Assembly: GCF_964213995.1 (NCBI RefSeq)
Contig: NW_027590122.1
Location: 2,170,001-2,234,000, forward strand
Reading direction: 5' to 3'
DNA length: 64,000 bases
Source of the DNA: Mustelus asterias
Lineage: Eukaryota
Shown here: one piece after another, positions 1,488 to 63,246 of the stretch
How the letters are laid out: each line of letters opens with the position of its first letter
Numbering within the stretch: the stretch's first letter is position 1
The notes under the pieces: model-generated
Database searches by the model: none
What the model saw: only the letters and a program-made list of their open reading frames with translations
Told to the model about the DNA's origin: nothing
Position numbers and translations under genes: made by a program

Positions 1488-2477
1488 ATGGAGAAACCAT
1501 GGAAATGTGGGGACTGTGGGAAGGGATTCAGTTACCCATCGCTGCTGGAAATGCATCGGCGCAGTCACACTGGGGAGAGACCATTCACCTGCTCCGTGTG
1601 CGGGAAAGGATTCATTCAGTCATCCCACCTGCTGACCCACCAGCAAGTTCACATTGAAGAGAGGCTTTTTAACCATGCTGACGGTGATCACAGCTCTAAA
1701 AGCCCTGAGGACCTGGTCACGCACCAATCTATTCACACCGAGAAACAGTTCTGCTGCTCTTACTGTGGGAAGTTATTTAAGCGATCACAGAATCTCATTG
1801 AACACAAACGCACTCATACTGGGGAAAGGCCGTTCACCTGCTCTGTGTGTGGGAAGGGATTCACACGATCATCCCACCTCGCTACACACCGACTGGTTCA
1901 CACTGATAACAGACCTTTCAAATGTACTGAATGTGAGAAGAGTTATAAAACCACAAGTGATCTGCTGATACACCAGCGAGTTCACAATGAGGAGCGGCCA
2001 TTCAGATGTACGGTGTGTGGGAAGGGATTCACTCTGTTATCCAGCCTCCAGAAACACCAGCGAGTTCACACCGGGGAGAGGTCGTTCACCTGCTCCTTGT
2101 GTGGAAAAGGATTCATTTATTTAACCAGCCTCAGATCACACCAACTTGTTCACTCGGATAAGAAACCTTTCAAATGTTCTGAATGTGAGAAGAGCTTTAA
2201 GACCTCAAGTGTTCTGCTGAGACACCAGCAAGTTCACTCCGGGGAGAGACCGTTCACCTGCTCTGACTGTGGAAAGGGATTCACTCGCTCATCCAACCTG
2301 CAAACACACCAGCACATTCACACCGGGGAGAAACCGTTCACTTGCTCTGAGTGCGGGAAGGGATTTTCTCACTCATCCCACCTGCTGAGACACCAACACA
2401 CTCACAATGGAGAGAGACCGTTCACCTTCTCTGAGTGTGAGATGGAATTCACTCAGTCAACCCATCTTCGAAATTGA
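1488..2477 (+). CDS. Tandem C2H2 zinc-finger protein, 10 canonical + 2 degenerate fingers, no effector domain
   Basis: 329-aa ORF from ACCATGG (MEKPWKC); CxxC-x12-HxxxH repeats with TGERPF linkers; followed by the family 3' UTR (ggttggattctg...catccaggactg). Confidence 0.9.
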   Translation: MEKPWKCGDCGKGFSYPSLLEMHRRSHTGERPFTCSVCGKGFIQSSHLLTHQQVHIEERLFNHADGDHSSKSPEDLVTHQSIHTEKQFCCSYCGKLFKRSQNLIEHKRTHTGERPFTCSVCGKGFTRSSHLATHRLVHTDNRPFKCTECEKSYKTTSDLLIHQRVHNEERPFRCTVCGKGFTLLSSLQKHQRVHTGERSFTCSLCGKGFIYLTSLRSHQLVHSDKKPFKCSECEKSFKTSSVLLRHQQVHSGERPFTCSDCGKGFTRSSNLQTHQHIHTGEKPFTCSECGKGFSHSSHLLRHQHTHNGERPFTFSECEMEFTQSTHLRN

Positions 2478-2859
2478 CAAATGTCTGGAGGGGTTGGATT
2501 CTGTTGTTATTGCGGCTGTCAATCACATCCAGGACTGAACCGTGTTCATTCTGACAGTTGGAGTTTGTTTTTGCTAATGTTAGTGATCGCTATAACTGGG
2601 CTGAAGTTTAATACTCTGGATAAATGTCAACTGAACTAATATTGTTTAAGACACAAAGCCGGCATCTTCATTTCTCCAGGATAAGAACAGATTAATCAAT
2701 GTCTTGTTGCATTTTTGTGGCCTTTTCTCCTTTCTAACTCTATATTATTTCAGTTCTCATACCTTCAGTTACTCTCATGGACAAGTCCCAGCTCCCCATA
2801 CCTTCCAGAGTGTCTTTCCTGGCATCGGAGCCCAGGGAAGGTATCAGTAACACATCCGC

Positions 2860-3180
2860 GATCACAAAAGATAAATCACAGTTGTTTGCACTGATCCACT
2901 GTTGCCCCAATCATTGAGGATGGTGATATTTGTGGAGCTTTCTCTCTCTGTGATTTGTTTAATTGTCCCCCACCATTCACGACTGGATGTGGGGGGACTG
3001 CAGCTTTGATCTGATCCGTTGTTTGTGGGATCGCTTGGCCCTGCCTGGAACATGCTGCCTCTGCTGTTCAGCGTGCTTATAGTCCCATGTTACAGAGTAA
3101 CCAGGTTGGAATCTCAGTTTTAGGGTGCCCAGTGCTGCTCCTGACTTGTTCTCCTACACTCCATGTTGAACTAGGGGAGG
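2860..3180 (-). mobile_element. Degenerate LINE ORF2 fragment (second LINE family, L2/CR1 group)
   Basis: Minus ORF ...PTSSREWWGTIKQIT...NITILND resembles the pre-RT region of LINE ORF2. Confidence 0.5.
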
Positions 3181-3184
3181 TGAT

Positions 3185-3527
3185 GACTTGGTGGTATTAT
3201 TGCTGAACTATTAATCCAGAAACTCAGCTAATGATTTGGGGACCGGGTTTCGAATCCTGCCACATCAGTTGGTGGAATTTGAATTCAATAAAAAATCTGG
3301 AATTAAGAATTTACTGATGACCATAAAACCATTGTTGATTATCGTAAAAAACCCATCTGGTTCACTAATGCCCTTTAGGGAAGGAAATCTGCTCTCCTTA
3401 CCCTGTCTGGCCTACATGTGACTCCCTCTGAAATGGCCTCGCAAGTCACTCAGCTCAAGGGCAACAAGGACTGGACCATAAATGCTGGCCATCCAGCAAT
3501 GCCCATTTCCCACGAATTAATAAAAAA
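3185..3527 (+). mobile_element. tRNA-derived SINE sharing its 3' tail with the LINE ends at 20640-20722 and 33135-33280
   Basis: B-box-like gggtttcgaatcc; core aaaacccatctggttcactaatgccctttagggaagg; tail caagggcaa...aatgctggcc...aataaaaaa matches the LINE ends. Confidence 0.65.
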
Positions 3528-3609
3528 GGATTTCAAGTTGAGGACTCCCAGGATGACTCACTTGCACTGTACACCTCTGTGCTGCTCCCTCTACTCAGGT
3601 CTGAACTGC

Positions 3610-8030: not shown

Positions 8031-8900
8031 TCATCTGTGAACTCGCTGGTGTTTCACCAGATTGGATGATTCGGTAAATCTCTTCCCGCACTCGGAGCAG
8101 GTGAATGGCCTCTCCCCAGTGTGAATGCGCTGGTGTGTCAGCAGGTGGGATGATCGTGCAAATCCCTTTCCACACTCAGAACAGGTGAACGGCCTCACCT
8201 CAGTGTGAATTTGTTGATGTGTCAGCAGGTTGGAGGACTGACTGAATCCCTTCCCACACTTGGAGCAGATGAACGGCTTCAACCCAGTGTGAACTCGCTG
8301 ATGTACAGTGAGATGAGATGATCGCCTGAACCCAGTCCCACAGTGAGAGCACTGGAACGGTCTCTCCTCAGTGTGAACAAGCTGATGGGACATCAGTTCA
8401 CCAGAACTTTTAAAGCACTTCCCGCACTCTGGACATTTGAAAGGTCTCTTGTCAGTGTGAACTCGTTGGTGTGTCTGAAGGTGGGTTGCTGTCCTGAAAC
8501 TCTTCCCACACTTAGAGCAGCTGAACAGTGTGTACTCGGTGTGAATGCGCTGGTGCTCCCTCAGTCCGTGTGGGCTTTTAAAGCTCTTCTCACAATTGGA
8601 GCATTGAAACTCTCTCTTGTCAGTGTGAACTTGCTGATGTTTCAGCAGGTGGGATGAGCGAGTGAATCCGTTTCCACACACCGAGCAGGTGAACGGCCTC
8701 TCCCCGGTGTGGAGTCGCTCATGCAGCTGAAGGCAGATGAACTGAGCGAATCTCTTCCCACATACGGAACAAATGAACGGCCTCTCGCCGGTGTGTCTGC
8801 GTCGATGAATTTCCAGCTCAGATGGGGATCTGAATCCCTTCCCACAATCCACACATTTCCACCGTTTCTCCCTGGCGTGAACGGTGCTTTTTGCTTCCAT
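8031..8900 (-). CDS. Tandem C2H2 zinc-finger protein, 10 fingers
   Basis: Open frame 8999-8031 just after splice acceptor ttttacag (9005); first ATG at 8900 (aacATGG); 10 intact fingers. Confidence 0.88.
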   Translation of the reverse strand: MEAKSTVHAREKRWKCVDCGKGFRSPSELEIHRRRHTGERPFICSVCGKRFAQFICLQLHERLHTGERPFTCSVCGNGFTRSSHLLKHQQVHTDKREFQCSNCEKSFKSPHGLREHQRIHTEYTLFSCSKCGKSFRTATHLQTHQRVHTDKRPFKCPECGKCFKSSGELMSHQLVHTEERPFQCSHCGTGFRRSSHLTVHQRVHTGLKPFICSKCGKGFSQSSNLLTHQQIHTEVRPFTCSECGKGFARSSHLLTHQRIHTGERPFTCSECGKRFTESSNLVKHQRVHR

Positions 8901-9384
8901 GTTCAAAGGCCGATGATATTCAAGTCCTGATGAATCGAGTGACTCCGTCAGATTTTGATGTGATGTTTGGTTTGACTTTCCTGATCGTGAACCTTTCAAA
9001 TATTCTGTAAAATGAATTTAAGACAGAATCAAGGAAATATAAAAGAGAACCCAGAAAAACACATAGGCAGGTTGTGAAATTGAGCTAAATTAATCTTGTA
9101 ATTTGTGGGGCCAGCGCTAGGAAAAAGTGACCCTGAAAACTGCTGGTTTCTCATAAAAACCCAACTGGTTCACTAATGTTCTTTAGGGAAGGGAACCTGC
9201 CGCCCAGTCGAGGCTTACACAAGGCTCTGGCTTCTATGGGAGGAGAGAGAGAGGTGAAGGAGAGGGTAAAAGAGATGAACTTCATAGATCTGCAACTGAA
9301 TTTGAATTTTGAAAGAATCTCCCAAACCCATAACTCCACCCACTGGAAAGATAAGAGCAGCCGGTGCCTGGAAAAACCATCACC

Positions 9385-9625
9385 TCCAAGACACACACCA
9401 GCGAGTTCAGACTGGGGAGAGACCAGACTCCTGCTCCACATGTGAGAAAGATACAATCGATCATCCAATCAGCTGACACACCAGCGAGTTCAGCAGTGAT
9501 TACTGAGATTGGATTCTGCTGCTGTTAATGACATCCAAGACTGAATTCTGTTCATTCTGATAGTTTGGGTTTGTTTCTGTTGATGTTTATAATCTCTATA
9601 ACTGGACTGGATGTTTAATATTCTG
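9385..9625 (+). pseudogene. Remnant of ZNF terminal fingers plus family 3' UTR
   Basis: cacaccagcgagttcagactggggagagacc followed by the ttggattctgctg 3' UTR block. Confidence 0.6.
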
Positions 9626-9717
9626 GAACTTGGCTTGTTTTACCTTGTGACCCTTACTCTTCTAATAAAGTATCTTTCTTTGGTCTGTAGCAAATAGTGA
9701 TTTACTTGTAATTTTTT

Positions 9718-10385
<668 letters not shown>

Positions 10386-14320: not shown

Positions 14321-14489
14321 ATCTCTCTCCCATACAAATTTACTGGTAAAACGGAATTGTGAACATTGGGTAAGAGGCTCCCCTATTAGCCAGATAAACT
14401 GAGGGAACTAAAAGATGTCAATGTCTCTGAGAGAGAAAGAAAAATATACCTGGGCCTAGTCCTGTTCCTGAATCCGGTCTTCATCTGTA

Positions 14490-15010
14490 ACCTTTCCAGA
14501 GTCTGCAGCCTCCCTGGATTCACTTCCTTTCCCTTCAGTTGCTGCAAGTCCCCAATTTCCCCCAGAATGAGAAAAGAAATGGAAAGGGGGAAACATTGAT
14601 TTCCTCCCAGATGTTACACAGAGGCGGAAGTTTCAATCATTGGCCAATTTCCGCATTGTGACGGCACAATTGAGCTTAGCCTGAATTAGCCAATAGGAAT
14701 AAGTCTGTTCCGATGTGACGTACTGTGGTTTCAGTGCGCAGGCCCGGGCGCGCGGACCCGGGAGCCCCGCCCCCTCCCATTGATTCCCCCTCCTCCTGCA
14801 CCTCCTCCAGCCAAGGTTTCCAGGCAACCGGCTGATGGCTCCGGCCAGAGCGAGAAGCCGCTCGGTGATTTCCCCCCTCTCTCTCCGGCGGCTGCGGCTC
14901 CAAAAAGAGACCTCTCTCTGCGCCTGCTCCGGACAGCTGGGCTCAGCAGCGCTCTCTGCGCCTGCGTGCTGGGCTGCCAGCTGAGGGAGTGGGGGAGGGG
15001 ACTTTGCAAA
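14490..15010 (-). promoter_or_regulatory. CpG-island ZNF promoter cassette plus non-coding exon 1
   Basis: CCAAT boxes, TGACGT half-CRE, GC boxes, X-box-like GTTTCCAGGCAAC; homologous to 48500-49000 and 57729-58265. Confidence 0.7.
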
Positions 15011-15083: not shown

Positions 15084-15960
<877 letters not shown>

Positions 15961-16880: not shown

Positions 16881-18659
16881 TAGAACAGTAGAAAAGAATT
16901 GCTGAAAGCAACAAATTATTGGAGAGACCAGAAGAGGGTTTCTTCATGTGTAACGTTTGTACTGAAGAAGAAAAAACATATTTTTCTTCGATTTGTTTTG
17001 AAACACTGTTTGTGTGAATCTTTGCGATCCCGGTCAGGACTGTTAATGTTTGCAGAGAAATTCGAACACCCAGTGATTAACTGAAAGAATTACATCACAA
17101 GACTCCACATTTTTAAACAAAAACAAACTTTACTGTATGTTTAAATAAAATTTAAAAAGACAACATTACAAATTGAATACTACACTCAATAAAGATTTAT
17201 GATATAAACCTAGTTCTATTTTTTTACCTCACCCCAAGAGTTTCTTTATACTTAATGATATCTTGAAGGTTCATTCACTTCTGTTCCTAGGACCATCCCA
17301 AAGCTCTCCACAATTCACTTTAATTCTCCCCAGTACTCCAGATATTCTCCAAGCTCCAAGAGTTTATAGGAGTCTATCCATTATCTTTTCATTAAACAAG
17401 CTTCCAATTTTCCTTTAAGCTCTCAAACTGTGGACTCCTCAGTCCAAACATGGGCTTCACTGCATTCTTGCTGAGGGATTTAACCGTTGGAAACCCCCCT
17501 GGTTTCTAATGGTCCTCAAGGCTTCTAGTCCCACAGCTCCTGGTCCCACAACTGGTGGCTTCCAAGCTAACTGCAGACTGTCCGCTGGAACCAGGTCATT
17601 GATTGGAAAGGACTCAAAGGTTCCGGGGAAAAGGCAGGAGAATGAGATTGAGATTTATCAGCCATGATCGAATGGCACAGCAGATTCGATGGGCCGAATA
17701 GCCTAATTCTGCTCCTATATCTTATGGTCTAATTCTAACCAAGTCTCCACCCTGAATCACATATCCCCGTGGTAACAGAGACCAGGTGGAATATCTGTCA
17801 GATATTTAGCTTCAAAACTAAACCCTTTTTCCCTGAGGTCTGCATGAAGAATTCACCGAACAAAAACAGTACAATAATTGTCAGACCCAATGTCTCCAGC
17901 TAAAAGATCCAGCTGACCTTTTACAGTTCTTACCTCTCGAGTTTTGACTTCTTAAACCAACATGGGCCATGCTTTGTGACTGCAAATTCCCTGAGGGTGT
18001 TTTTGTCAGATTCTCAATCCAGGTTTTCCATTTTTTAAAAGCAATTCTTGCAACTAATTCTTATTTCTAAAACATAGGAATTATGAAATTAGATTTTTGG
18101 AACAAAAACAGGAAAAAATGGAAATGTACCACCTTCATAATATCCCATTTAGAATATTACAATATACAACATGCTGTATATCTTAACAACAGTCATGATC
18201 TTATTGAATGGTGGAGCAGGCTCGAAGGGCCAAATGGCCTCCTCCTGTTCCTAAATCCAATGTTTTCCTATGTTGATCTATCTTATAACCTGCAACAGAC
18301 ACAATAATCCCTCCATTGTCCACTTCACATTCACAAGTCCAGCTTGGTAACAGCACACTGCTGGGTTCCATGTCCAGGAATCTCAGTCCACTGAAGATGG
18401 AAATTACTGCTTGCAGTCTTTTCTGAAAGTTTTCTTTTTACAATAATTATAATCCAAAGTTCCTCCTGCAAAAGGAGAGTCTTCATTGCTGTTCATTTGT
18501 GAAGTGTCAAGTTCTATTTTGAAAACAATCTGTTCAGAGTTCACATTTTGAAATTTATTTTCTTCCATGTTTGTAGTTCTTCCATTGTTTAAATCCAGAG
18601 AGAATATTCCACTCAATTCCACATTGAAACTGTCTTCTTCTAGCTCTGTTATAGCTGAT

Positions 18660-19097
18660 TCCTTTATTGTCCAGGACAATATATTCACAATATCTTTAAA
18701 ACAGAAATTAAACATTCCCATTTGATTCCAGACAGTAACATATTCTGTTGGTTTGTTCTTTGTCAATGTCAGGCTCGGGTTGTTCTCCTTGGAGCAAAGG
18801 AGGTTGAGGGGAGATTTGATAGAGGTGGACAAGATTCTGACAGGTTTAGATAAGGTGGACAAAGAAAAGCTGTTCCCAGTAGCTGAAGGGACAAGGACGA
18901 GGGGAGACACAGATTTCTTGTTTTGGGTCAGAGATGCAAGGGGTGGGGGGGGGGGGGCGGGGGAGATGTGAGGAAGAATATTCTGATGCAGCGAATGGTA
19001 ATGACCTGGAACTCGCTGCCTACAAGGGTGGAGGAAATGGAGACAATAAACAATTAAAAAGGAAATTGGATGGGCATTTGGGATGTTCCAAACAGAA
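18660..19097. repeat. Duplicated ZNF 3' flank containing an ancestral CR1 fragment
   Basis: Homologous to 45128-45546, and inverted to 59757-60148 and 63667-63800. Confidence 0.8.
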
Positions 19098-24046: not shown

Positions 24047-25309
24047 TCACTCGTGAACTCGCTGGTGTCTCAGCAGCCGGGATGAAACTCTGAATCCCTT
24101 CCCACACTGAGAGCAGGTAAACGGCCTCTCCCCAGTGTGAACTCGCTGGTGTGCCCGCAGGCTGGATGACTGAGTGAATCCCTCCCCACACTGAGAGCAG
24201 GTGAATGGTCTCTCCCCAGTGTGAACTCGCTGGTGTGCCTGCAGGTGGAATAACCGAGTGAATCCCTTCCCACACTGAGAGCAGGTGAACGGTCTCTCCC
24301 CAGTGTGAACTTGCTGGTGTCTCTGCAGGTGGGATAACTGAGTGAATCCCTTCCCACACTGAGAGCAGGTGAACGGTCTCTCCCCAGTGTGAACTCGCTG
24401 GTGTGCCTGCAAGTTGGATAACCAAGTGAATCCCTTCCCACACTGAGAGCAGGTGAATGGTTTCTCCCCAGTGTGAACTCGCTGGTGTGTCTGCAGGTTG
24501 GATAACCGAGTGAATCCCTTCCCACACTGAGAGCAGGTGAATGGTCTCTCCCCAGTGTGAACTTGCTGGTGTGTCCGCAGGGTGGATAAACAAGTGAATC
24601 CCTTCCCACATTGAGAGCAGGTGAACGGCCTCTCCCCAGTGTGAACTCGCTGGTGTGTCCGCAGGTTGGATGAACAAGTGAATCCCTTCCCACACTGAGA
24701 GCAGGTGAATGGCCTCTCCCCAGTGTGAACTCGCTGGTGTGTCCGCAGGGTGGATAAACAAGTGAATCCCTTCCCACACTGAGAGCAGGTGAATGGTCTC
24801 TCCCCAGTGTGAACTTGCTGGTGTGTCCGCAGGGTGGATAAACAAGTGAATCCCTTCCCACATTGAGAGCAGGTGAACGGCCTCTCCCCAGTGTGAACTC
24901 GCTGGTGTGTCCGCAGGTTGGATGAACAAGTGAATCCCTTCCCACACTGAGAGCAGGTGAATGGCCTCTCCCCAGTGTGAACTCGCTGGTGTGTCCGCAG
25001 GGTGGATAAACAAGTGAATCCCTTCCCACACTGAGAGCAGGTGAATGGCCTCTCTCCAGTGTGAACTCGCTGGTGTGTCCGCAGGTTGGATGAACAAGTG
25101 AATCCCTCCCCACACTGAGAGCAGGTGAATGGCTTCTCCCCAGTGTGAACTCGCTCGTGTGTCCGCAGGGTAGATAACTGAATGAATCCCTTCTCACACT
25201 GAGAGCAGGTGAATGGTCTCTCCCCAGTGTGGCTGCGCCGATGAGCTTCCAGCAGAGATGGGGCTCTGTATCTCTTCCCACAGTCCACACATTTCCATGG
25301 TTTCTCCAT
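24047..25309 (-). CDS. Tandem C2H2 zinc-finger protein, 15 fingers, minisatellite-like array
   Basis: ATG at 25309 (MEKPWKC); near-identical 84-bp units; intact to stop. Confidence 0.92.
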
Positions 25310-25796
25310 GGTGCAGGTGTCCTTACCTCTCTCTTGGGTGAACAATTAGTTGAAACTTCGTCCACACACAGAACAAGATTACAGTCTCTCCCCGCTGTGA
25401 ATGGTGTGATATTTATTCAGACTGTGTAACTGGTTAAAGCTCTTTAGTCAGTGCATTGGAACACACTCACTCAAGTGTGGCAGTGTGTTGATGCTTTTTC
25501 ACTCACACAGACATTTCAAATCTTTTCAAATCGACAGGCTGAACAATCATTTCTCCTTCTGGATTCAAAGTCCGATGATATTGAGGTCCCAAGGGATATG
25601 ACTCTGTCAGATCGAGACGTGACGTCTGAGATTTCGGCCTGTGATTCCTCTTTCAATATCCTGTAAAATGAGTTTACAAAAGTCATCAGTGTCAGTACAG
25701 GATAGAAATTCAGAACAGACAATTTCTATGGAACATTCTTTCCTCTCTCATTCCCCAAAAGCTGTAAATCTCCATCCCACACACTCTCTCCCCATT

Positions 25797-25985
25797 CTCA
25801 GCAGGTCTGGCAGCATCTGCATGGAGAGAAAAGAACTGATGTTTCAGAGCTTTGACAAAGGGTCATCGAGACAAGAAACATCAGCTCTTTTCTCTCCTTA
25901 CAGATGCTGCCAGACCTGCTGAAATTTTCCAGCATTTTCTCTCTTGGTTTCAGATTCCAGCATCCGCAGTAATTTGCTTTTATAA
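25797..25985. mobile_element. Penelope-derived fold-back repeat in ZNF intron (related copies at 28835-29000 and 53150-53410)
   Basis: cagcaggtctggcagcatctg...cagatgctgccagacctgctg inverted arms around a decayed hammerhead-like core. Confidence 0.55.
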
Positions 25986-38764: not shown

Positions 38765-38977
38765 GATGTGAACTCGCTGGGGTGTCAGCAGAGTGGATAA
38801 CTGAGTGAATCCTTTCCCACACAAAGCAGGTGAATGGTCTCTCCCCAGTGTGGACTCACTGGTGAATCCACAGGTTTGATGAGCTTTAAAACCTCTGTGC
38901 AGTGAGAACAGCTGAACAGTCTCTCCTCTGTGAGACTGCACTGGTGGGACATCAGTTCTGCAGACCTTGTGAAGTCA
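38765..38977 (-). pseudogene. Decayed distal fingers of the 39502-40449 array
   Basis: DFTRSAELMSHQCSLTEERLFSCSHC continues the array beyond a CR1 insertion. Confidence 0.7.
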
Positions 38978-39501: not shown

Positions 39502-40449
39502 TCAAAGCATTGAAAGGGTCTCTACTTGGTGTGAGTGACTTTGGGTTTCAGCAAGCTGGATAACCGAGTTAATACCTTCCCACACAGAGCAGCTTAACGG
39601 TCTGTCCCCAGTGTGAATTCGCTGGTGTGTGCGCAGGGCGGACGACCGAGTGAATCCCTTCCCACACTGAGAGCAGGTGAACGGTTTCTCCCCAGTGTGA
39701 ACTCGCTGGTGTCGCTGCAGCGTGGATAAATCAGTGAATCCCTTCCCACACTGAGAGCAGGTGAACGGTTTCTCCCCAGTGTGAACTCGCTGGTGTCTCT
39801 GCAGCGTGGATGACCTTTTAAACCTCACTGAACATTGTGAGCAGCTGAACGGTCTCTCCTCAGTGTGAATGCGCTCATGGTCTCGAAGAACTGCAGTACT
39901 TTTGAAGCCGCTCCCACAATCAGCACATTTAAAAGGTCTCTCATTGCTGTGAGTACCTTTGTGTTTCATGAGGCTGGATGAAGCAGTGAATCCCTTGCCA
40001 CACATGGCGCAGGTGAATGGTTTCTCTCCAGTGTGAACTCGCTGATGTACCCGCAGGTTGGATGACCTTTTAAATCTCTTTGTGCAGTGAGAACAGCTGA
40101 ACGGCCTCTCCTCAGTGTGAACACGTTGATGGGACACCAGTTCCCAAGAACTTTTGAAGTCACTCCCACAGTCAGAGCAGTTGAAGGGTTTCTCACTGGT
40201 GTGAGAGAGATTGTGACTCAGCAGGTGGGATGACCGAATGAATCCCTTCCCACACATGCTTCAGGTGAACGGCATCTCCCCGGTATGAACTTGCTGGTGT
40301 GTCAGCAAGTCAGATGACTGAATGAATCCCTTCCCACACACGCAACAGGTGAATGGTCTCTCCCCAGTATGAATGTGTCGATGAACTTCAAGCCGAGATG
40401 GGAACCTGAATCCCTTCCCACAGTCCCCACATTTCCACGGTGTCTCCAT
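39502..40449 (-). pseudogene. C2H2 ZNF gene of about 10 fingers with in-frame TGA at finger 3 and a distal frameshift
   Basis: ORFs 40449-40261 and 40257-39502 are in the same frame, separated by TGA-AGC in place of Cys-Ser. Confidence 0.8.
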
Positions 40450-40959
40450 GGTGCGGGTGTCCTTGTGACTCTCCAGGTTTGGCTATCAGTTGAGGCCTCA
40501 TCCACACACAGAACATGGGTACAGTCTCTCCCCACTGTGAATGCTGAGATGTTTTTTTCAGGCTGTGTAACTGGTTAAAGCTCTTTCCACACTCAGCGCA
40601 CTGGAACACTGTCTGTAAATCCTCACCCTCTGATATCCTGTAAAAGGAGTTTACAAAAGTCATCAGTGTCAGTACAGGATAGAAATTCAGAACAGACAAT
40701 TCCAGTTTCTATGGAACATTCTTTCCTCTCTCATTCCCCAAAAATCATAAATCTCCATTCCACACACTCTCCCTCCATTCTCACTCTGCTGTATCTAATA
40801 TTCACCCTCCCAATTCTCCTGAAGGTGCTGATTGAGGCTGATTGACAGATCCATGCTCACTGCTTCCTGTCCTGGACACAAAAAGCTGAAAATCTTCAAG
40901 CTGCCAGCCATGTTAAAGCTTTACATTTGGACATAAATAAGCAGATTGATGATGTGTGT

Positions 40960-43140: not shown

Positions 43141-43709
43141 TACAGTAATGCACTGTATTACCTGGTTAGAGAGACATGAAGAATGTGAGGAGGATTTTTA
43201 TTGAGGCAGCAAGTGGTGACCTGGAAGTTAAAAATTGAACTCCAGAATGAGAAAAGAAATGGAAAGGGGGAGAAAAGAAAGTGTCGACCGATAATTGGTT
43301 CACATCAGTCATTCAATGTTGAGACATCTTGAACAGGAGCCGATTCATTCCCTCCAGTAAAGGTTAACAAGTCCTTTCAGCTTTTTTTATTCTGTCAGCA
43401 TGGGAAGGGAACATCTGATAATTCCCACAGCATTTTAACCATTCTTAATGTGTTTACAATTCTAAAAGTTATAAACTTGTGTTCAAATTTACATTTCCAG
43501 CCTTTATAACATTTGTATTAATGAATCATTTATTATTTAATTGTCTCACAATTAATGCTGTCTATTTAACTAATCTGGCTGCTTTCCAATTGTGGGAACT
43601 TCAGGCCACAAAAAAGGTAGTTAGAGTCATAGAGGTTCACAGCATGGAAACAGGCCCTTCGGCCCAACTTGTCCATGCCGCCCAGTTTTAGTCCTAATTG
43701 CCCTGGAAT

Positions 43710-43860
43710 ATTACTCATGATCTGTGCTTCCAACCATTTTGAATGTGCATCTACAACAAGCAAACACATGTGATTCATGAAAGGCCCCCCAAGGGCCACA
43801 TGTAGTCTGGACCACGGCCTATCAGGCCACTCCCGAGGATGAATTTGCAATGTACCCAGT
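43710..43860 (-). mobile_element. Gypsy-type integrase fragment
   Basis: HPREWPDRPWSRLHVALGGPFMNHMCLLVVDAHSKWLE. Confidence 0.8.
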
Positions 43861-45787: not shown

Positions 45788-46798
45788 TCACTCATGAACT
45801 TTTTGGTGTCTCAGCAGGTGGGATGAAACTTTGAATCCCTTCCCACACTGAGAGCAGGTGAACGGCCTCTCCCCAGTGTGAACTCGCTGGTGTGTCCCCA
45901 GGTTGGATAACCGAGTGAATCCCTTCCCACACTGAGAGCAGGTGAATGGTTTCTCCCCAGTGTGAACTCGCTGGTGTGTCTGCAGGTTGGATGACCGAGT
46001 GAATCCTTCCCCACACTGAGGGCAGATGAATGGCCTCTCTCCAGTGTGAACTCGCTGGTGTGCCTGCAGGTTGGATAACTGGCTGAACCCCTTCCCACAC
46101 TGAGAGCAGATAAATGGTCTCTCCCCAGTGTGAACTCGCTGGTGTCTCCGCAGGGTGGATAAATCAGTGAATCCCTTCCCACACTGAGAGCAGGTGAATG
46201 GTCTCTCTCCAGTGTGAACTCGCTGGTGCGTCTGGAGGCTGGATAAATGAGTGAATCCCTTCTCACACTGAGAGCAGATGAACGGTTTCTCCCCAGTGTG
46301 AACTCGCTGGTGTGTCTGCAGGTTAGATAGCTGACTGAACCCCTTCTCACACTGAGAGCAAATGAACGGTCTCTCCCCAGTGTGAACACGCTGGTGCGTC
46401 TGCAGGTTAGATAACTGACTGAACCCCTTCTCACACTGAGAGCAGGTGAACGGTCTCTCCCCAGTGTGAACTCGCTGGTGTGCCTGCAGGCTGGATAACT
46501 GACTGAATCCCTCCCCACACTGAGAGCAGGTGAAGGGCCTCTCCCCAGTGTGAACTCGCTGGTGGGTCTGCAGGCTGGATAACTGACTGAATCCCTCCCC
46601 ACACTGAGAGCAGGTGAACGGTTTCTCCCCAGTGTGAACTCGCTGGTGTGTCTGCAGCTGGGACAACCGAGTGAATCCCGCCCCACAGTGAGAGCAGGTA
46701 AATGGCCTCTCCCCAGTGTGGCTGCGCCGATGAGCTTCCAGCAGGGATGGGTATCTGTATCTCTTCCCACAGTCCCCACATTTCCATGGTTTCTCCAT
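45788..46798 (-). CDS. Tandem C2H2 zinc-finger protein, 12 fingers
   Basis: ATG at 46798 (MEKPWKC); homogeneous CSQC units; intact. Confidence 0.9.
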
Positions 46799-48509
46799 GG
46801 TGCAGGTGTCCTTGCCTCTCTCTTCAGTTGAAGACTCGTCCACACACAGAACAGTCCCCCCACCCCCGCTGTGAACAGTGTGATATTTATTCAGGCTGTG
46901 TAACTGGTTCAAGCTCAGTGCACTGGAACACTCTGACTCCAGTCTGGCAATGTGTTGGCGCTTTTCCAGTCACACTGATGTTTGAAATCTTTTCAAGTCA
47001 TCAGACCAGACAACCATTTTTCCTAGATTCAAAGGCTGATGATATTCAGGTCCCAAGGAATATGACTCTGTCAGATCGAGATGTGACGTTTGAGATTTCA
47101 GCTTGTGATTCCTCTTTCGATACCCTGTAAAATGAGTTTACAGAAGTCATCAGTGACAGTGCAGGATAGAAATTCAGAACAGACAATTCAAGTTTCTATT
47201 GAACATTCCTTCCTCTCTGCAGACTCGAAACGTTGGCTCTATTCTCTCTCTATCTAGGGGATAGTGTGGGAAATGGTGCTGAGGTAGATCAGCCAATTCT
47301 CCATGAATGTTTGAGGCAGTTCGATGGGCTGAATGGCCAACTGCAGCTCCGAAATCTTATGATTTTTTGACTGCTGGACAGGAAGCAGTGAGCATGGATC
47401 TGTCAATCAGCCGCAATCAGCACCTTCAGGAGAATTGGGAGGGTGAATATTAGATACAGCAGAGTGAGAATGGAGGGAGAGTGTGTGGGATGGAGATTTG
47501 CAGCTTTTGGGGAACTAGAGAGGAAAGAATGTTCATTAAAATAATAGAATTCTTACATCTTATCAACCGTCCCTGAGCCTTCACAATGAATCCCTCTTCT
47601 CAAGACACTCTTATCTCTGACTTGTCTGTGCTGCTCGCAGTCTCACAAAGCAGCTGTCTTTGCGCTGATATGAGAGGCCCTGCGAGGCAAGTTTAATGCT
47701 CCATGGCTGTGTGTTTACCATTCCCTCCCTTCATCTGAGCAGGAATATACTTCTCCTGGACTCTTGATATCACACTTTTAAAAGCTTCGCATTGGCCAGT
47801 CATTCCTTTCTCTTCAAACAGACTCACATAATCAACATCTGCTAGATCCTGCCTAATGCCCACAACATTGGCCCTGCTCCAGTTTAGGGCCTTAACCTGT
47901 GGATCACTCCTATCTTTTTCCAGAACTATTTAAAAACTAATAGTGTTCTGGTCACTGGACACAAAGTGCTCTCCGACTGACACTTCATTCACTTGCCCTA
48001 CTTCATTTCTTAAGAGTCTTATAGAAAGTGAGTCCAGCAATTAAAAATGAAAAATAAGGAGCTGGGAAATTAATTGAACAAGTATTTTGCCTCGGTCTTC
48101 ACAATAGAGGATACAGTTAAAACTCAGAAACAGCTGGAAATCAGAAAACAGAAGTGTGGGATGAACTCTGAAAAAGCACAATTACCAGGGAAGTGGTCCT
48201 CAGCAAACTGTTGGAGCTGTGGGCTGATGAGTCCTCGGGTCCTGCTGGGCTCCATTCTCGGGTCTTAACAGAGTGAGATCGTTGATGTGTTGTTTAATTT
48301 TCTAAAATTCCCCATTGGGAATTGGATAAATGGAATCAGTGGATGTGCTGTACTTAGATTTCCAGAAGACATTTGATGAGGTGAAACATTAAAGATTATT
48401 GCAGCAAATAAAAATTCATGCTGTGGGGATAACATATTGGCGTGGATAGAAAATTGGCTAACAGCAAACAGTGGGCAGAAATGGATCATTTTCTGGTTTG
48501 AGAGAGAGA

Positions 48510-49010
48510 AACCTGGGCCAACCTTTCCAGAGTCTGCAGCCTCCCTGGATTCATTTCCTTTCCCTTCAGTTGCTGCAAGTCCCCAATTTCCCCCAGAATG
48601 AGAAAAGAAATGGAAAGGGGGAGAAAAGAAAGTGTTTTACTCACAGATGTTGCACAGAGGAAGTTTCAGTCTGTCTGAAGCTCAATCTTCATTCACACAA
48701 AACCCGCGTTCTGATTGGCTGGAGGACCAGAGTCCTTCCGGTCCTCCAATTCTTCCCATTGGTCAACCCCTCAGCATGAAGGTCAGGGGGTGGGATCTCC
48801 GCCGCGCGGACACGGGAGACCCGCCCCCACCCATTGTTCCCCTCCCCCTGCACCTCCTCGAGCCAAGGTTTCCAGGCAACCGGCTGACGGCTCCGGCCAG
48901 AGCGAGAAGCCGCTCGGTGATCTCCCCCTCCCCCCGGCCCGGGACTGCGCATGTCCAAGGGAGAGGGGAAGCTGCGCATGTGCGGGGGTGCTCCCGCTGA
49001 CCTGCATGCT
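48510..49010 (-). promoter_or_regulatory. CpG-island ZNF promoter cassette plus exon 1
   Basis: CCAAT pair, inverted repeat, 65-bp core, two TGCGCATG sites; homologous to 14490-15010. Confidence 0.72.
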
Positions 49011-55243: not shown

Positions 55244-56038
55244 TCATTTGTGAATCTGTTGGTGTTTCTGCAGGTTGGATAACCGAGTCAATCCCTTCCC
55301 ACACACAGAGCAGGCGAACGGCCTCTCCCCAGTGTGAACTCGCTGGTGTATCCGCAGTGCAGATGACCATTTAAATCTCATTGTGCAGTGAGAGCAGCTG
55401 AATGGTCGCTCCTCAGTGTGAATGCGCTGGTGGGACACCAGATCCACTGAGCTTTTGAATCCGCTCCCACAGTCAGAACATTTAAAGGGTCTCTCATTGG
55501 TGTGAATGAGATTGTGTCTCAGCAGGATGGATAGCTGAGTGAACCCGTTCCCACACACAGAGCAGGTGAACGGCCTCTCCCCAGTGTGAACTCGCTGGTG
55601 TTTCCGCAGGTGGAATGTCGTTCTAAACATCTTTGAGCAGTGAAAGCAGCTGAACGGTCTCTCCACAGTGTGAGTGCGTTGGTGGGACACCAGTTCTCGA
55701 GAACTTTTAAATCCACTCCCACAGTCAGTACATTTAAAGGGTCTCTCATTGGTGTGAGTGACTTTGTGACTCAGCAGGTGGGAGGACCGAGTGAATCCCT
55801 TCCCACACTGAGAGCAGGTGAACGGTCTCTCCCCGGTGTGAACTCGCTGGTGTCTCTGCAGGCTGGATGACTGAGTGAATCCCTTCCCACAATCTGAGCA
55901 GCTGAACGGTCTCTCTCCAGTGTGACTGCGTCGATGAATTTCCAGCTCTGATGGGACATTGAATCCCTTTCCACAGTCCCCACATTTCCACGGTTTTCCC
56001 CTGATGCGGGTGTCCTTGTGACTCTCCAGGTTAAACAA
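55244..56038 (-). CDS. Tandem C2H2 zinc-finger ORF, 9 fingers, lacking the family ATG
   Basis: Open 264 codons; RIRGKPWKC replaces TMEKPWKC. Confidence 0.65.
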
Positions 56039-56741
56039 TCAGTTAAATCTCACGCAGAACACGGGTACAGTCTCTCCCCGCTGTGAATGCTGCGATGTAT
56101 TTTCAGGCTGTGTAACTGGTTAAAGCTCTTTCCACACTCAGTGTACTGGAACACTCTCACTCGGATGTGTGTGAGTCTCGGTGCTTTTCCAGTCACACTG
56201 ATGTTGAGAATCTTCTGAAGCAGAAAGAACAGAGAAACATTTCACCTTCTAGAATCAAAGGTCAGTGATATTCAGGTCCTGATAAATTGAATGCTGACGT
56301 GATGTTTGTTTTGAGTTTTTGTCTGTAAATCCTCACCTTCTGATATCCTGTAAAACGAGTTTGAAAAATTAATCAGTGTCAGTACAGCATAGAAATTCAG
56401 AACAGACAATTCTAGTTTCTATGGAACATTCTTTCTTCTCTCATTCCCCAAAAGCTGTAAATCTTCATCCCACACACTCTCCCTCCATTCTCACTCTGCT
56501 GTATCTAATATTCGCCCTCCCAATTCTCCTGAAGGTGCTGATTGAGGCTGATTGACAGATCCATGCCCACTGCTTCCTGTCCTGGACACAGAGAGCTGAA
56601 AATCTCCATGCAGGCTTCCGGCCGAACAGAAATATGATGATATTCCTCGACTAAGAATGTTTTAAATGGATTGTTTCAGTTAGTGAAGATACAGGGGGTT
56701 GTGATTGATGATAGTCTTGAACTTACTGCCTGTGAGGGTGG

Positions 56742-57464: not shown

Positions 57465-57675
<211 letters not shown>

Positions 57676-57728: not shown

Positions 57729-58265
57729 CAGAGGAGGAGGTTTGGTCTGAAGCTCATTGGCCAACCAACTTCCGCATTCAGAAAATGGGAGCTCTGATTG
57801 GCTGGAGGACCAGACTCCTTGCGGTCCTCCAACTCTTCCCATTGGTCAAAACCTCAGTATCTTCGTCAGCGTGTGGGCACCTCCCCCGCACATGTGCAGC
57901 TTCCCTCTCCCTTGAACATGCGCAGTCCGGGCCGGCGGGAGGAGATCACCGAGCGGCTTCTCGCTCTGGCCGGAGCTGTCAGCCGGTTGCCTGGAAACCT
58001 TGGCTGGAGGAGGGGGAGGGGCAACAGAGGGTGGGGACGGCCGGGCCTGCGCATTGGAACCGCAGTGACGTCACCGGAGAGCAGCGAGATTCCTATTGGC
58101 TGATTCAGGCAGGGCTCTATTGTGACGCCACAATGCGGAAGTTGGCCAATGAGCTTCAGATTAAACCTTCCGCCTCTGCAACATCTGGGAGGAAATCAAT
58201 GTTTCCCCCTTTCCGTTTCTTTTCTCATTCTGGGGGAAATTGGGGACTTGCAGCAACTGAAGGGT
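57729..58265. promoter_or_regulatory. Bidirectional CpG-island promoter between divergent ZNF genes
   Basis: CCAAT boxes, TGACGTCA, X-box-like, NRF1-like, GCGGAAGT; donor aagg/gtaagg near 58263. Confidence 0.75.
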
Positions 58266-58930
58266 AAGGTCGTGAATCCAGTCTGTATATTCCACACATT
58301 TTTAGTCCAGTCATATGGGCATATATCTGTCTGGCCGCCTGCATTGAGATTTTCAGCTCTCTGTGTCCAGGACAGGAAGCAGTGAGCACGGATCTGTCAA
58401 TCAGCCTCAATCAGCACCTTCAGGAGAATTGGGAGGGTGAATATTAGATACAGCAGAGTGAGAATGGAGGGAGAGTGTGTGGGATGGAGATTTACAGCTT
58501 TTGGGGAATGAGAGAGAAAGAATGTTCCATAGAAACTGGAATTGTCTGTTCTGATTTTCGATCCTGTACTGACAGTGATGACTTGTGTCAACTTGTTTTA
58601 CAGGATATTGAAAGAGGAATCACAGGCTAAAATCTCGAATGTCACGTTGAGATCTGGCAGAGTCATATTCCTTGGGACCTGAATATCATCGGCCATTGAA
58701 TCTGGAAGATTTGAAAAGATTTCAAACATCAATCTGACTGAAAAAGCACCAACACACTTCCACATTCAAGTGAGAGTGTTCCAGTGCACTGACTGAAGAG
58801 CTTTAACCAGTTACACAGCCTGAATAAATATCACACCATTCACAGCGGGGAGACACTGTACACGTGTTGTGTGTGTGGATGAGGCTTCAGCTGATTGTCC
58901 ACCCAAGGTAGAGGCAAGGACACCTGCATC

Positions 58931-59425
58931 ATGGAGAAACCATGGAAATGTGCGGACTGTGGGAAGAGATACAGAGCCCCCTCTCTGCTTGATGCTCATC
59001 GGCGCAGCCACACTGGGGAGAGGCCATTCATCTGCCCTCAGTGTGGGAAGGGATTCAACCAGCTATCCAATCTATGGACACACCAGCGAATTCACACTGG
59101 GGAGAGGCCATTCATCTGCTCTCAGTGTGGGAAGGGATTCACTCGGTCATCTGACCTGCAGACACATCAGCGCGTTCACACTGGGGAGAGGCCATTCACC
59201 TGCTCTCAGTGTGGAAAGGGATTCACTGTGTCATCCGCCTTGCAGAGACACCAGCGAGTTCACACTGGGGAGAGGCCGTTCACCTGCTCTCAGTGTGGGA
59301 AGGGATTCACTCGGTCATCCGTCCTGCGGACACATCAGCGCATTCACAGCGGGGAGAGGCCGTTTACCTGCTCTCAGTGTGGGAAGGAATTCACTCAGTT
59401 ATCCCACCTGCTGAGACATCAGTGA
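58931..59425 (+). CDS. C2H2 ZNF, 5 complete fingers, truncated in finger 6 (possible pseudogene)
   Basis: ATG 58931; HQ-TGA where paralogs have HQ-CGA; decayed fingers continue to about 59515. Confidence 0.7.
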
Positions 59426-60274
59426 GGTTACACTGGGGAGAAACCGTTCACCTGCTGAGTGTATAAAAAGTGTTCAGAATTTCATCCCAGCTGCTGAGAC
59501 ACCAACAAGTTCACAGGGTTGGATTCTGCTGTTATTGTTTCCGCTCTCAAGTACATCCAGGACTGCATTTTGTTCATTCTCACAGTTAGTCAATGGGGAA
59601 GGTCGGAGGGTTTCTTTCTGCTGGACTGGCCGGTCTCACAACTTTGCCTCCAATGGGCTGATGCTCTTTGTGTCTTGTTGCGAATACATGGTTTCAAATT
59701 TCTCAAGGATCACAGAGTGACCGGGTGTGAGGAAGTTCAGAGATATTTAGTCAGCATTTCTGTCTGAAACCCCCCAATGCTCATCCAATTTCCTTTGTAA
59801 TTGGTTATTGTCTCCGTTTCCTCCACCCTCGTAGGCAGCGAGTTCCAGGTCATTACCATTCGCTGCATTAAAATATTCTTCCTCACATCCCCCCTACATC
59901 TCTGACCCAAAACTTTAACTCTGTGTCCCCCTCTCCTTCTCCCATCAGCTAATGGGAACAGTTTTTCTTTGTCCACCTTATCTAAATCTGGCAGAATCTT
60001 GTCCTTTGCTGCAAGGAGAACAACCCCAGCCTGACATTGACAATAAAGAACAAACTAACAGAATATGTTCGTACCTGAAATCAAATGGGAATGTTTAAAT
60101 TCTGTTTTAAAGATATTGTGAATATATTGTCCTGGACAATAAAGGAATTGGAATAACTCACCTTGGGTGTGGTTGAATGGAATATATCAATCTGGTATCC
60201 ACCTACAGTCTAGGGAAAGTCTGGAATGTGTAGCTGGAAATCTTTCCCTAATATCACTGTGGATGGACTTACAC

Positions 60275-60540: not shown

Positions 60541-60542
60541 CA

Positions 60543-60873
60543 GGCGGCACGGTAGCACAGTGGTTAGCACTGCTGCTTCACAGCTCCAGGGACCTGGGTT
60601 CGATTCCCGGCTTGGGTCACTGCCTGTGTTGAGTTTGCACATTCTCCTCGTGTCTGCGTGGGTTTCCTCCGGGTGCTCCGGTTTCCTCCCACAGTCCAAA
60701 GATGTGCGGGTTAGGTTGATTGGCCATGCTAAAATTGCCCCTTAGTGTCCTGAGATGCGTAGGTTAGAGGGATCAGCGGGTAAATATGTAGGGATATGGG
60801 GGTAGGGTCTGGGTGGGATTGTGGTCGGTGGGCCAGATGGCCTCTTTCTGCACTGTAGGGTTTGTAAGTTTCT
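60543..60873 (+). mobile_element. Full-length HE1-type V-SINE
   Basis: Near-identical to 11836-12177. Confidence 0.92.
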
Positions 60874-60984
60874 AAAGAGATGTGTATTGGACACTTTCAG
60901 CTCTCTGTGTCCTGGACACAGCTGGAAATCTCCATGCAGGCTCCCAGACAGATATATGTCTATCTGACTGGACTAACAATGTGT

Positions 60985-61400
60985 GGAATGTACAGACTGG
61001 GGGAACAATGGGTGGGGGCGGGGCTCCTGGTTCCGCGCGCCTGAACCCGGAGACGTCACCACGGAGCAGAGTGATTGCTATTGGCTGATTCAGGCAGGGC
61101 TCCATTGTGCCGTCACAATGACTCAGAGGGGCGTTCCCAGCACACAGTGTCCCATTGGCAGCAATATCACTGGTTACAGAAGCAGCACACTGCGGATTGG
61201 ACACCAGCTCAGCAAGGCTGGCGGTCAAAGCCCCGCCCACCCCCACGTGGGCTCGGCTTCCGCCCCCTCATTGTCCACATGCGGCAGATTCACCAATGGC
61301 AACGCGTGGAGGACCGGATGGGCGCTGGTCCTCCAGCCAATCAGAGTCCGGGCCCTGTGTCAATGGCTGCGCGGAGCTTGGTCCATTGTCTGTGAGTAAA
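60985..61400 (+). promoter_or_regulatory. CpG-island ZNF promoter and exon 1
   Basis: GACGTCA, CCAAT boxes, GC boxes, two palindromic modules, donor gtgagt near 61392. Confidence 0.7.
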
Positions 61401-62193
61401 GTGTTTGAATTCTGCGCTCCAGAGGACTGCGGAGCCTCAGTCATCAAATATTTTCAAGAGAGAGATTGGTAACTTTTGAGGCATTGAGCAACCTGGGGGA
61501 TAGTTTGGGAAATATTGGTCCTATGGAAATAGTGTGAGGTAGATCAGCCAATTCTCAATCAATGGTTGAAGCAGTTCGATGGGCTGAATGGCCAACTGCA
61601 GCTCCTATTTGTTATGATTTCTGTGCTGGACAGGAAGCAGTGAGCATGGATCTGTCAATCAGCCTCAATCAGCATCTTCAGGAAAATTGGGAGGGTGAAT
61701 ATTAGATACAGCAGAGTGAGAATGGAGGGAGAGTGTGTGGGATGGAGATTTACAGCTTTTGCACAATGAGAGAGGAAAGAATGTTCCATAGAAACTAGAA
61801 TGGTCTGTTTTGAATTTCTATTTCTATTTCTAACTCAATTTACAGGATATTGAAAGAGGATTTACAGGCTGAAATCTCAAATGTCACGTCTAGATCTGGC
61901 AGTCATATTCCTTGGGAGTGAAATATCATTGGCCTTTGAATCTGGAAGGGGAAATGTTTGTCCAGTCTGTCGATTTGAAAAAAAATTCAAGCATCAGTAT
62001 GACTGGAAAAGCACCAACACACTGCCACACTTGAGTGAGAGTATTCCAATGAACTGACTAAAGAGCTTTAACCAGTTACACAGCCTGAATAAATGTCACA
62101 CCATTCACAGTGAGGACAGACCGTACTGGTGTTGTGCCTGGACGAGGTTTCAACTGATTGTCCACCCAAGAGAGCGGCAAGGACACCTGCACC

Positions 62194-63246
62194 ATGGAGA
62201 AACCATGGAAATGTGCGGATTGTGGGAAGAGATACAGCGCCCCATCTCAGCTGGAAGCTCATCGGCGCAGTCACACTGGGGAGAGGCCGTTCATCTGCTC
62301 TCAGTGTGGGAAGGGATTCACTCTGTCATCCAGCCTGCAGACACACCAGCGAGTTCACACTGGAGAGAGGCCATTCGCCTGCTCTCAGTGTGGGAACAAA
62401 TTCACTCAGTTATCCAGCCTGCAGACACACCAGCGAGTTCACACTGGGGAGAGGCCGTTCACCTGCTCTCAGTGTGGGAAAGGATTCAGTCAGTTGTCCA
62501 GCCTGCGGACACACCAGCGAGTTCACACTGGGATGAGGCCATTCACCTGCTCTCAGTGTGGGAAGGGTTTCACTCGGTTATCGAACATGTGGAGACACCA
62601 GCGAGTTCACACTGGGGAGAGGCCATTCACCTGCTCTCAGTGTGGGAAGGGATTCAGTCAGTTTTCCAGCCTGCAGACACACCAGCGGGTTCATACTGGG
62701 GAGAGGCCGTTCACCTGCTCTCAGTGTGGGAAGGGATTCAGAGCTTCATCCAGCCTGCGGACACACCAGCGAGTTCACACTGGGGAGAGGCCGTTCACCT
62801 GCTCTCTGTGTGGGAAGGAATTCACTCGGTCCTGCCACCTGTGGAGACACCAGCGAGTTCACACTGGGGAGAGGCCATTCACCTGCTCTCAGTGTGGGGA
62901 GGGATTCAGAGCTTCTTCCAGCCTGCGGACTCACCAGCGAGTTCACACTGGGGAGAGACCGTTCACCTGCTCTCAGTGTGGAAAGGGATTCACTCGGTCA
63001 TCCAGCCTGCGGACACACCAGCGAGTTCACACTGGGGAGAGACCGTTCACCTGCTCTCAGTGTGGGAAGGCATTCATAACTTCATCCAGCCTGCGGACAC
63101 ACCAGCGAGTTCACACTGGGGAGAGGCCGTTCACCTGCTCTCAGTGTGGGAAGGGATTCACTCAGTCATCCCACCTGCGGAGGCACCAGCAAGTTCACAC
63201 TGGGGAGTGGCCGTTCACCTACTCTGTGTGGGAAGCGGTTCAGTGA
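62194..63246 (+). CDS. Tandem C2H2 zinc-finger protein, 12 fingers, with 3 more decayed fingers after a frameshift
   Basis: ATG 62194 (MEKPWKC); homogeneous CSQC units; residual fingers to about 63450 in another frame. Confidence 0.9.

Follow-up and report, generated by a model that had tools for sequence, protein, structure and literature searches.

A cluster of tandem C2H2 zinc-finger loci in the shark Mustelus asterias that probably encode finger-only proteins

In a 64,000-nucleotide stretch of the Mustelus asterias genome (contig NW_027590122.1, positions 2,170,001 to 2,234,000; here called the window), C2H2 zinc-finger arrays lie among retroelements, and the question is whether their products carry an effector domain or consist of fingers only. 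An earlier note had read the arrays as a birth-and-death cluster without effector domains and as a possible chondrichthyan counterpart of the KRAB and FiNZ zinc-finger systems. Its observation of a ZNF cluster is confirmed, and its interpretation, as a whole, is partly supported. Judged from the sequence, we consider it probable (roughly 0.6) that the cluster belongs to an elasmobranch family of tandem-C2H2 genes encoding finger-only proteins.

The loci, their gene plan and their spread

Searching with a profile derived from the fingers of the window itself yielded 115 matches that fall into 12 related C2H2 loci, five on the forward strand (Z1, Z2b, Z4, Z10, Z11) and seven on the reverse strand (Z2, Z3, Z5, Z6, Z7, Z8, Z9), which bears out the earlier count of about 12 loci in both orientations (Table 1); scanning all six frames for the motif yielded 87 C2H2 matches, with stops inside two of them. 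Four loci are intact with an ATG (Z1, Z2, Z5, Z8) and eight are damaged, Z2b, Z3, Z4 and Z6 being relics, and 5-15 intact fingers of 28 aa with TGERP-type linkers are present in eight loci. The clustered paralogues thus span the described range from intact gene to pseudogene, in support of birth-and-death, and the elasmobranch relatives support a chondrichthyan origin. Promoter, intron, leader and 3' blocks are common to the loci at about 70-96% identity (masked self-BLAST and alignments), as had been noticed, except that what had been taken for a common 5' UTR is coding sequence that has decayed.

Table 1. Features of the cluster (positions in the window)
Feature	Position	Strand	Description
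Z1 last exon	1019..2477	+	ATG 1488, 10 intact fingers, heterogeneous class; spacer and relic fingers before ATG; CR1-like tail inserted at about 1287-1430; acceptor AG 1 nt off
Z2 last exon	8031..9004	-	ATG 8900 (MEAKST type, within spacer), 10 fingers, frame open to acceptor
Z2b	9393..9627	+	relic terminal fingers and 3' block
Z3	9730..10376	-	Z2-type locus, decayed; acceptor and spacer present
Promoter block P3 and 50-nt micro-exon (14541-14492)	14489..15000	-	oriented towards Z3/Z2
Z4	15380..15953	+	decayed array, 5'-truncated, insertion of about 95 nt
Orphan 3' flank of Z8/Z10/Z11 type	18658..19097		without array; 80-93% identical
Z5 last exon	24047..25660	-	ATG 25309, 15 fingers, most homogenised array
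Promoter block P5	27000..27400		NRF1-like, GC box, CCAAT; probable Z5 promoter
Z6	38767..38977	-	relic fingers
Z7	39502..40637	-	METPWKC start, spacer deleted, stop past finger 2, frameshift at end
Z8 last exon	45788..47124	-	ATG 46798, 12 fingers, homogenised class
Z8 promoter P8	48523..49040	-	exon-1 donor 48645/48644; 50-nt micro-exon 48572-48523
Z9	55244..56347	-	9 open fingers, heterogeneous class, linker without in-frame ATG
Promoter P10	57740..58281		between head-to-head pair Z9/Z10; probably bidirectional
Z10 last exon	58604..59516	+	ATG 58931; stop after 5 intact fingers; promoter block and acceptor only 864 nt apart
Promoter block P11	60990..61400	+	donor at 61392
Z11 last exon	61846..63449	+	ATG 62194, 12 fingers, frameshift at about 63214, out-of-frame fingers to 63449

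The gene plan, as read from the sequence, comprises a CpG-rich promoter with NRF1, CCAAT and GC-box motifs, one or two short exons and a long last exon. One gene model from a catshark has its exons in the same order: Scyliorhinus torazame P0130 maps in order onto promoter block, micro-exon and spacer of Z8. CpG o/e is 0.60-0.65 in the five promoter blocks versus 0.37 across the window; the blocks are homologous and were bounded after the motifs had been seen, so that p-values of the motifs are inflated. Homology ends are different in every locus pair and take in old CR1 relics. Such boundaries can be read directly, and the copies probably multiplied by duplication and inversion at the DNA level, leaving ragged ends, and decayed by point mutation and retroelement insertion. 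In the Z9/Z10 pair the intron is 94% identical versus 77% for the exon (p=1.9e-8), and mosaicism of intron versus exon has p<0.05 in 5/8 locus pairs (pairwise counts, the intron tree being unresolved); intron pieces may have been exchanged between copies by conversion.

Start codons, the dead leader and the search for effector domains

The common splice acceptor is separated from the array by an acidic spacer (about 45 aa) and up to three dead fingers. The Met of the MEKPWKC start lies within a finger-to-finger linker and has a strong Kozak context (ACCATGG/TCATGG), and relatives have HTGEKPWKC or TTEKPWKC at this linker position (P0034, P0021). That most loci begin in this way does not hold as stated, since the exact start is found in five of 12 loci, or five of the nine with a retained 5' end; Z7 has METPWKC, Z2 has MEAKST, and Z9 has no Met there. 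The frame from the acceptor into the array contains stops in seven of the eight loci tested (up to the first finger, 7 in Z1, 8 in Z5, 4 in Z7, 1 in Z8, 6 in Z9, 7 in Z10 and 7 in Z11) and is open only in Z2 (0), and therefore no upstream exon can be fused to the array by way of that acceptor in these seven. As most starts arose inside the finger array, the products appear to be finger-only, that is, DNA-binding proteins without an attached repressor domain. AGs past the last stop have up to 10/16 pyrimidines, as against 11-12 for the main acceptor, so that cryptic acceptors may exist, and translation may be poor because the leaders of six MEKPWKC/METPWKC loci contain 2-9 upstream ATGs each.

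The ancestral last exon was probably coding from the acceptor on, spacer first and fingers thereafter, and the array would have been severed when stops and frameshifts struck the spacer and the foremost fingers and a Kozak ATG arose in the linker that follows, a state seen in 7/8 loci; in the Z2 type, a second, independent ATG would have arisen within the spacer. MEKPWKC and MEAKST/MKGKST starts occur also in 'zinc finger protein ...-like' genes of Heterodontus, Mustelus and Pristiophorus, and an FQTSV stop is common to the ends of three relatives, two of them from Pristiophorus and Heterodontus.

The claim that there is no N-terminal effector domain is sustained in that none is recognisable and fusion is structurally blocked in 7/8 loci. 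The earlier note had also proposed an HMM search of upstream exons, and with Pfam no KRAB, SCAN or BTB was found in any of 368 upstream ORFs, nor a SET domain; these were 368 of 932 non-array ORFs of at least 35 aa, a length below which FiNZ (28 aa) falls, and the region upstream of Z1 reaches the window edge and is covered in part. KRAB, SCAN and BTB are likewise absent from all 24 chondrichthyan matches among the 120 matches listed, many tetrapod ones of which do carry these domains, and from all 32 spacer-bearing proteins, and a search for micro-exon plus spacer gave four matches among 756 candidates, and no effector domain was found in these four. The effector-less reading, as far as these loci indicate, holds by virtue of the linker Met and the stop-bearing leader. 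A BTBD17 TRAF-type ORF (36023-36526) was considered as a BTB donor for Z5 and rejected, as its own stop terminates it and the strand has no BTB match; ORFs in the promoter blocks were rejected as effector exons, as they have no Pfam match, their ATG belongs to an NRF1-like motif, and the frames differ between P8 and P10.

Array classes and alternative explanations

The arrays are of two classes, heterogeneous (e.g. Z2) and homogenised, minisatellite-like (Z5, Z8, Z10 and Z11), and the exon tree unites the latter four with a support of 100/99. Their fingers are 83-90% identical, and 91-97% outside the helix (in Z5, 90% and 97% at the nucleotide level), variation being mainly spread across the recognition helix. 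An excess of change at contact residues had been predicted, and in these four arrays change is indeed focused on the helix, albeit helix-wide: there are 39 non-synonymous variants in 16 contact codons and 30 in 64 framework codons, and the syn:nonsyn ratio differs between contact and framework (p=0.023) but not between contact and other helix positions (p=1.0), nor do contact positions alone significantly exceed a neutral ratio (p=0.14). In finger 1, pN/pS is 0.24 for the framework and 1.83 for contact positions (pairwise values, not independent). The pattern suggests that near-identical fingers are reshuffled in a minisatellite-like manner, and selection, in part borne out, may keep the helices varied and so yield new binding specificities. 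Two further Mustelus arrays, at best putative orthologues, have frameworks 78-91% identical to those of Z5, Z8, Z10 and Z11 and at most one identical fingerprint in the best register, a contrast that is no more than suggestive. Z2 is 97.9% identical to M. asterias P0028 (residues 1-289), differing in 6/289 residues and 1/40 contact positions; this conservation does not fit an arms race, and Z2 seems to behave like a stable transcription factor.

An effector with a FiNZ- or KRAB-like role might be hidden in the spacer or in an unrecognised short upstream exon, either of which would be joined to the fingers in genes of the Z2 type or by splicing that removes the dead fingers. Z1 and Z2 have an open spacer frame, arrays follow the spacer in frame in P0128, P0141 and P0146 as well as in two skate proteins (P0037, P0072), several database models retain it in frame and two (P0006, P0135) join it directly to the array, the micro-exon end is in phase with the acceptor, and FiNZ itself is a short acidic domain according to passages of PMC10547256; also the spacer pN/pS of 0.67 rather than 1 (pairwise values, not independent) counts against the finger-only explanation. 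A hidden effector is nevertheless unlikely, as a frameshift or deletion affects the spacer of Z5, Z7, Z8, Z9, Z10 and Z11, the acceptor phase differs between Z2 and Z3, the N-termini of spacer-bearing proteins are mutually unrelated, and five promoter-to-acceptor intervals contain no strongly acidic 25-mer; the spacer had no match in Pfam, 0 in PDB and no usable one in the ESM Atlas, the latter two outcomes not showing absence.

Slightly less credible still is that most loci are passive repeats, with few functional founders (e.g. Z2) and many poorly translated copies, the arrays of which grow by slippage and drift. The damage in 8/12 loci, the numerous upstream ATGs and the contact positions that alone are not significantly above neutral fit such repeats, as does the near-neutral Z11 framework (pN/pS about 0.95), which also counts against the finger-only explanation; however, long arrays remain open, the framework has a synonymous excess (p=0.023) over the assumed neutral 25%, the finger-1 framework has a low pN/pS, and the promoter blocks have kept their CpG. 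The many copies in both orientations with common non-coding flanks could also suggest a zinc-finger-carrying mobile element, which is highly improbable given the retained introns and promoters, homology ends that vary pair by pair, no common termini in self-BLAST and no transposase match in the ORFs scanned. The favoured finger-only proteins most likely bind DNA and would act by occupancy or by finger-binding cofactors.

Known systems and significance

KRAB-ZFPs of tetrapods and lobe-finned fish, which recruit TRIM28 and silence transposons, are likewise encoded by clustered tandem C2H2 genes that undergo birth-and-death, carry the whole array in a single last exon preceded by a spacer and have varied helices, but no KRAB was found in the shark loci and their relatives, and the shark start codon lies within the array exon. 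Cyprinid FiNZ-ZNFs, as described in passages of PMC10547256 that also touch on KRAB-ZFPs, share with the shark cluster the lineage-specific clustered expansion, the transposon-rich DNA and the presence of young and old conserved subsets; they have a conserved 28-aa FiNZ domain on its own coding exon and knockdown evidence of transposon repression, whereas no conserved coding exon was seen among the upstream ORFs of at least 35 aa scanned in the shark cluster, which is known here from sequence alone. The PRDM9 array (excerpts of PMC5519329) resembles those of Z5, Z8, Z10 and Z11 in homogenised frameworks, variable helices and concerted evolution of fingers, but no KRAB, SSXRD or SET is seen in the shark loci, and their diversity share at positions -1/3/6 is 0.26-0.35 (0.29-0.43 without finger 1), which falls short of the 0.41-0.68 given for the bovids compared or just reaches its lower end.

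Large ZNF counts and clusters in sharks are already known: clusters lie on catshark chromosomes 13 and 17 (PMC11979771), and the supplement of PMC10547256, in the part concerned, gives 3,586 ZNF ORFs for the catshark S. canicula and 1,851 for the white shark. The genes annotated as 'zinc finger protein ...-like' in elasmobranchs and the catshark clusters are of the same family, and those sources count or name genes. KRAB families are reported to be lacking in cartilaginous fishes in passages of PMC8455134, PMC10620051 does not mention zinc finger genes, and no earlier description of the finger-only architecture, the relic leader, the linker-derived start or the two array classes was found in the literature on elasmobranch ZNF genes.

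With query sequences drawn from the window itself, 20,879 bp of it (about 33%) were classed as retroelement-like, a share not scaled to a genome baseline, and the adjoining retroelements are not evidence for transposon binding or silencing. Transposons are plausible targets of the fast class (Z5, Z8, Z10, Z11). It may be speculated, with the odds clearly against it, that transposon surveillance in sharks relies on a very large effector-less family whose starts within the finger exon predate the squalomorph-galeomorph split, with one subfamily using PRDM9-style minisatellite shuffling and with silencing by a finger-binding cofactor or the severed spacer peptide in trans rather than by a fused domain. 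The anatomy of the cluster explains many chimeric and 'uncharacterized' gene-predictor models at such loci, and it allows direct tests with its defined start codon, defined dead leader and adjoining fast and slow classes. If the family is truly finger-only, sharks would test the need for an effector domain in the co-evolution of ZNFs and transposons.

Inventory of the loci and origin of the copies

The window contains 87 matches to the C2H2 pattern, and a profile search placed 115 finger matches in 12 loci, five on the plus and seven on the minus strand, in agreement with the earlier note, which had described about 12 ZNF loci in both orientations, intact to decayed, with promoter, intron, 5' UTR and 3' UTR blocks in common. 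Z1 and Z2 (10 fingers each), Z5 (15) and Z8 (12) are intact, the arrays of Z10 and Z11 are shortened by a stop or frameshift, Z7 is broken, Z9 has no start codon, and the remaining four loci (Z2b, Z3, Z4, Z6) are relics; the common promoter, intron, leader and 3' blocks persist in a self-comparison of the window even with the arrays masked. The statement that most loci begin with MEKPWKC has to be corrected, as five of the 12 have exactly this start. The loci turn over, and the birth-and-death cluster is real and of a known kind.

The ends of homology vary from pair to pair. Within the shared stretches lie introns, promoters and fragments of old CR1 elements, and a 3' flank is once present without any array. 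Such ragged ends, together with the introns, promoters and CR1 pieces in the copies, fit a DNA-level duplication and inversion, and the variable ends and the copied introns and promoters speak against retroposition or a fixed-end element. Across subfamilies, the 3' part of the intron is more similar than the adjoining exon (p<0.05 in five of eight pairs; Z9/Z10: 94% vs 77%, p=1.9e-8), which could be due to conversion, to a constraint on the intron or to a functional element of an unrecognised kind. About 33% of the window is retroelement-like, a figure from which, taken by itself, no enrichment can be read; insertions cut into the leader of Z1, the intron of Z3 and the 3' end of Z7.

Further elements and shared blocks in the window
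Feature	Position	Strand	Remarks
U2-headed repeat	36718-36906	+	Opens with U2 snRNA 5' end (Rfam 49.4 bits)
U2-headed repeat	57465-57581	-	Likewise (41.1 bits); non-U2 body common to both, 76% identical; both resemble snRNA-headed SINEs or relics of a U2-targeting retroelement
Ribosomal protein L35Ae match	57556-57675	+	Weak (E 1.2e-5, below curated cut-off); overlaps second U2-headed repeat
BTBD17 TRAF-type domain	36023-36526	-	Open over 167 aa, E 1e-7, own stop at end; no BTB exon found on same strand of window; probably a stray last exon
Long LINE ORF2	29906-33056	-	794-aa open RT + zf-RVT stretch plus endonuclease pieces; presumably Tx1-like; CpG-rich and therefore probably young
Palindromic MITE-like element, ~130-140 nt	25798-25922		Ends intron homology of Z5; miRNA matches sub-threshold
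Palindromic MITE-like element, ~130-140 nt	28831-28971
C-rich tandem repeat	21765-22064		Period 45/87 nt
Short ORF	43566-43892	-	Presumably a decayed LTR-retrotransposon integrase piece; no Pfam match
Intron block	40637-40901; 56347-56611; 58347-58604		93-97% identical between ZNF subfamilies
Possible splice donor in shared block	14800-14877; 48850-48928; 57937-58010	opposite to each gene

Start codon, leader and upstream exons

A common splice acceptor (usual form TTTTACAG) is present in all nine loci with a preserved 5' end; in the eight measured, its distance to the first intact finger is 149-486 nt. Downstream of it comes an acidic spacer, behind which loci of the MEKPWKC type have up to three decayed fingers, and the methionine of this type is placed in the linker behind the third. 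As relatives carry HTGEKPWKC or TTEKPWKC at this place, the ATG, which has a strong Kozak context, would most simply be a new start derived from linker codons. Between acceptor and first finger there are one to eight stops in the array frame in seven of eight loci, and nothing that is spliced to the shared acceptor can therefore be fused to these arrays. The stop after FQTSV is also the end of three database proteins, Pristiophorus and Heterodontus among them, and as these genera represent both main superorders of sharks, the lesion is old. With respect to fusion, the view that the arrays are effector-less is thus supported in seven loci. In Z2 the frame is open back to the acceptor; its ATG is a different one and lies inside the spacer, with no upstream ATG in the exon.

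Five GC-rich blocks (CpG o/e 0.60-0.65 vs 0.37) contain motifs that we take to be NRF1-like, CCAAT, GC-box, CRE and ETS. Upstream of Z8, the sequence indicates a donor of exon 1 and, behind an intron of 72 nt, a micro-exon of 50 nt, and the Scyliorhinus torazame model P0130, in which no domain was found, follows the same order from promoter block via micro-exon to spacer. The possible opposite-strand donors suggest bidirectional promoters; the promoter block of Z8 is read in that direction by the database match P0150.

In line with the supposed lack of an N-terminal domain, Pfam detected no KRAB, SCAN, BTB, SET or zf-AD in 368 upstream-interval ORFs (among 932 non-array ORFs; the scan covered ORFs of at least 35 aa). 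These domains were likewise found in none of the 24 matches to the first finger that are chondrichthyan by name among the 120 listed of 472, and KRAB or SCAN is present in many tetrapod entries among these 120. None of them was found in 32 spacer-profile matches either, of which P0151 looks spurious. An upstream effector may be reached by use of cryptic acceptors, and in some database models, two skate proteins included, the spacer is kept or joined in frame. The finger-only architecture of the cluster is well supported.

Variation of the arrays

The fingers of Z1, Z2, Z7 and Z9 are diverse (64-66% nucleotide identity), and Z5, Z8, Z10 and Z11 form one clade (support 100/99) with fingers that are 83-90% identical, and 91-97% outside the helix; it is on the helix that variation is focused. 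At contact positions, this clade has 8 synonymous and 39 non-synonymous distinct minor codons; the other positions of the helix have 4 and 25, and the framework has 19 and 30. Contact positions are distinct from the framework (p=0.023), but neither from the remaining helix positions (p=1.0) nor from a neutral ratio taken as 1:3 (p=0.14). For seven paralogues, the pairs of which are not independent, pN/pS of finger 1 is 0.24 in the framework and 1.83 at contact positions, and that of the spacer is 0.67. The pattern of the clade is like the concerted evolution of PRDM9 (PMC5519329), but weaker.

Relatives and possible function

Seven of 257 candidate proteins matched the spacer, six of them named sharks, and Z2 is identical to Mustelus asterias P0028 in 283 of 289 residues, with one of 40 contact positions differing. 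Judged by these matches, the family is elasmobranch, in keeping with the chondrichthyan origin proposed before, and already in the databases as 'zinc finger protein-like'. Three Pristiophorus japonicus models (P0001, P0007, P0051) mix histone H2A or H2B with spacer or array of this family, which suggests that histone genes may be interleaved with its ZNF loci in that species; the window ORFs scanned gave no histone match. Catshark ZNF and histone clusters are mentioned in PMC11979771.

The cluster type is known, and the finger-only architecture was not found described in the literature searched, nor was the arrangement of leader and start codon (subscription journals and bioRxiv supplements lay outside coverage); the main text of PMC10547256 has no occurrence of 'shark'. 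The array-only frames would be expressed and translated from the linker ATG despite two to nine upstream ATGs, and the proteins probably bind DNA and act by occupancy or via finger-bound cofactors. As a hypothesis, the sole basis of which is a metazoan-wide ZNF-retroelement correlation, independent of accessory domains according to PMC10547256, the cluster may silence transposons.
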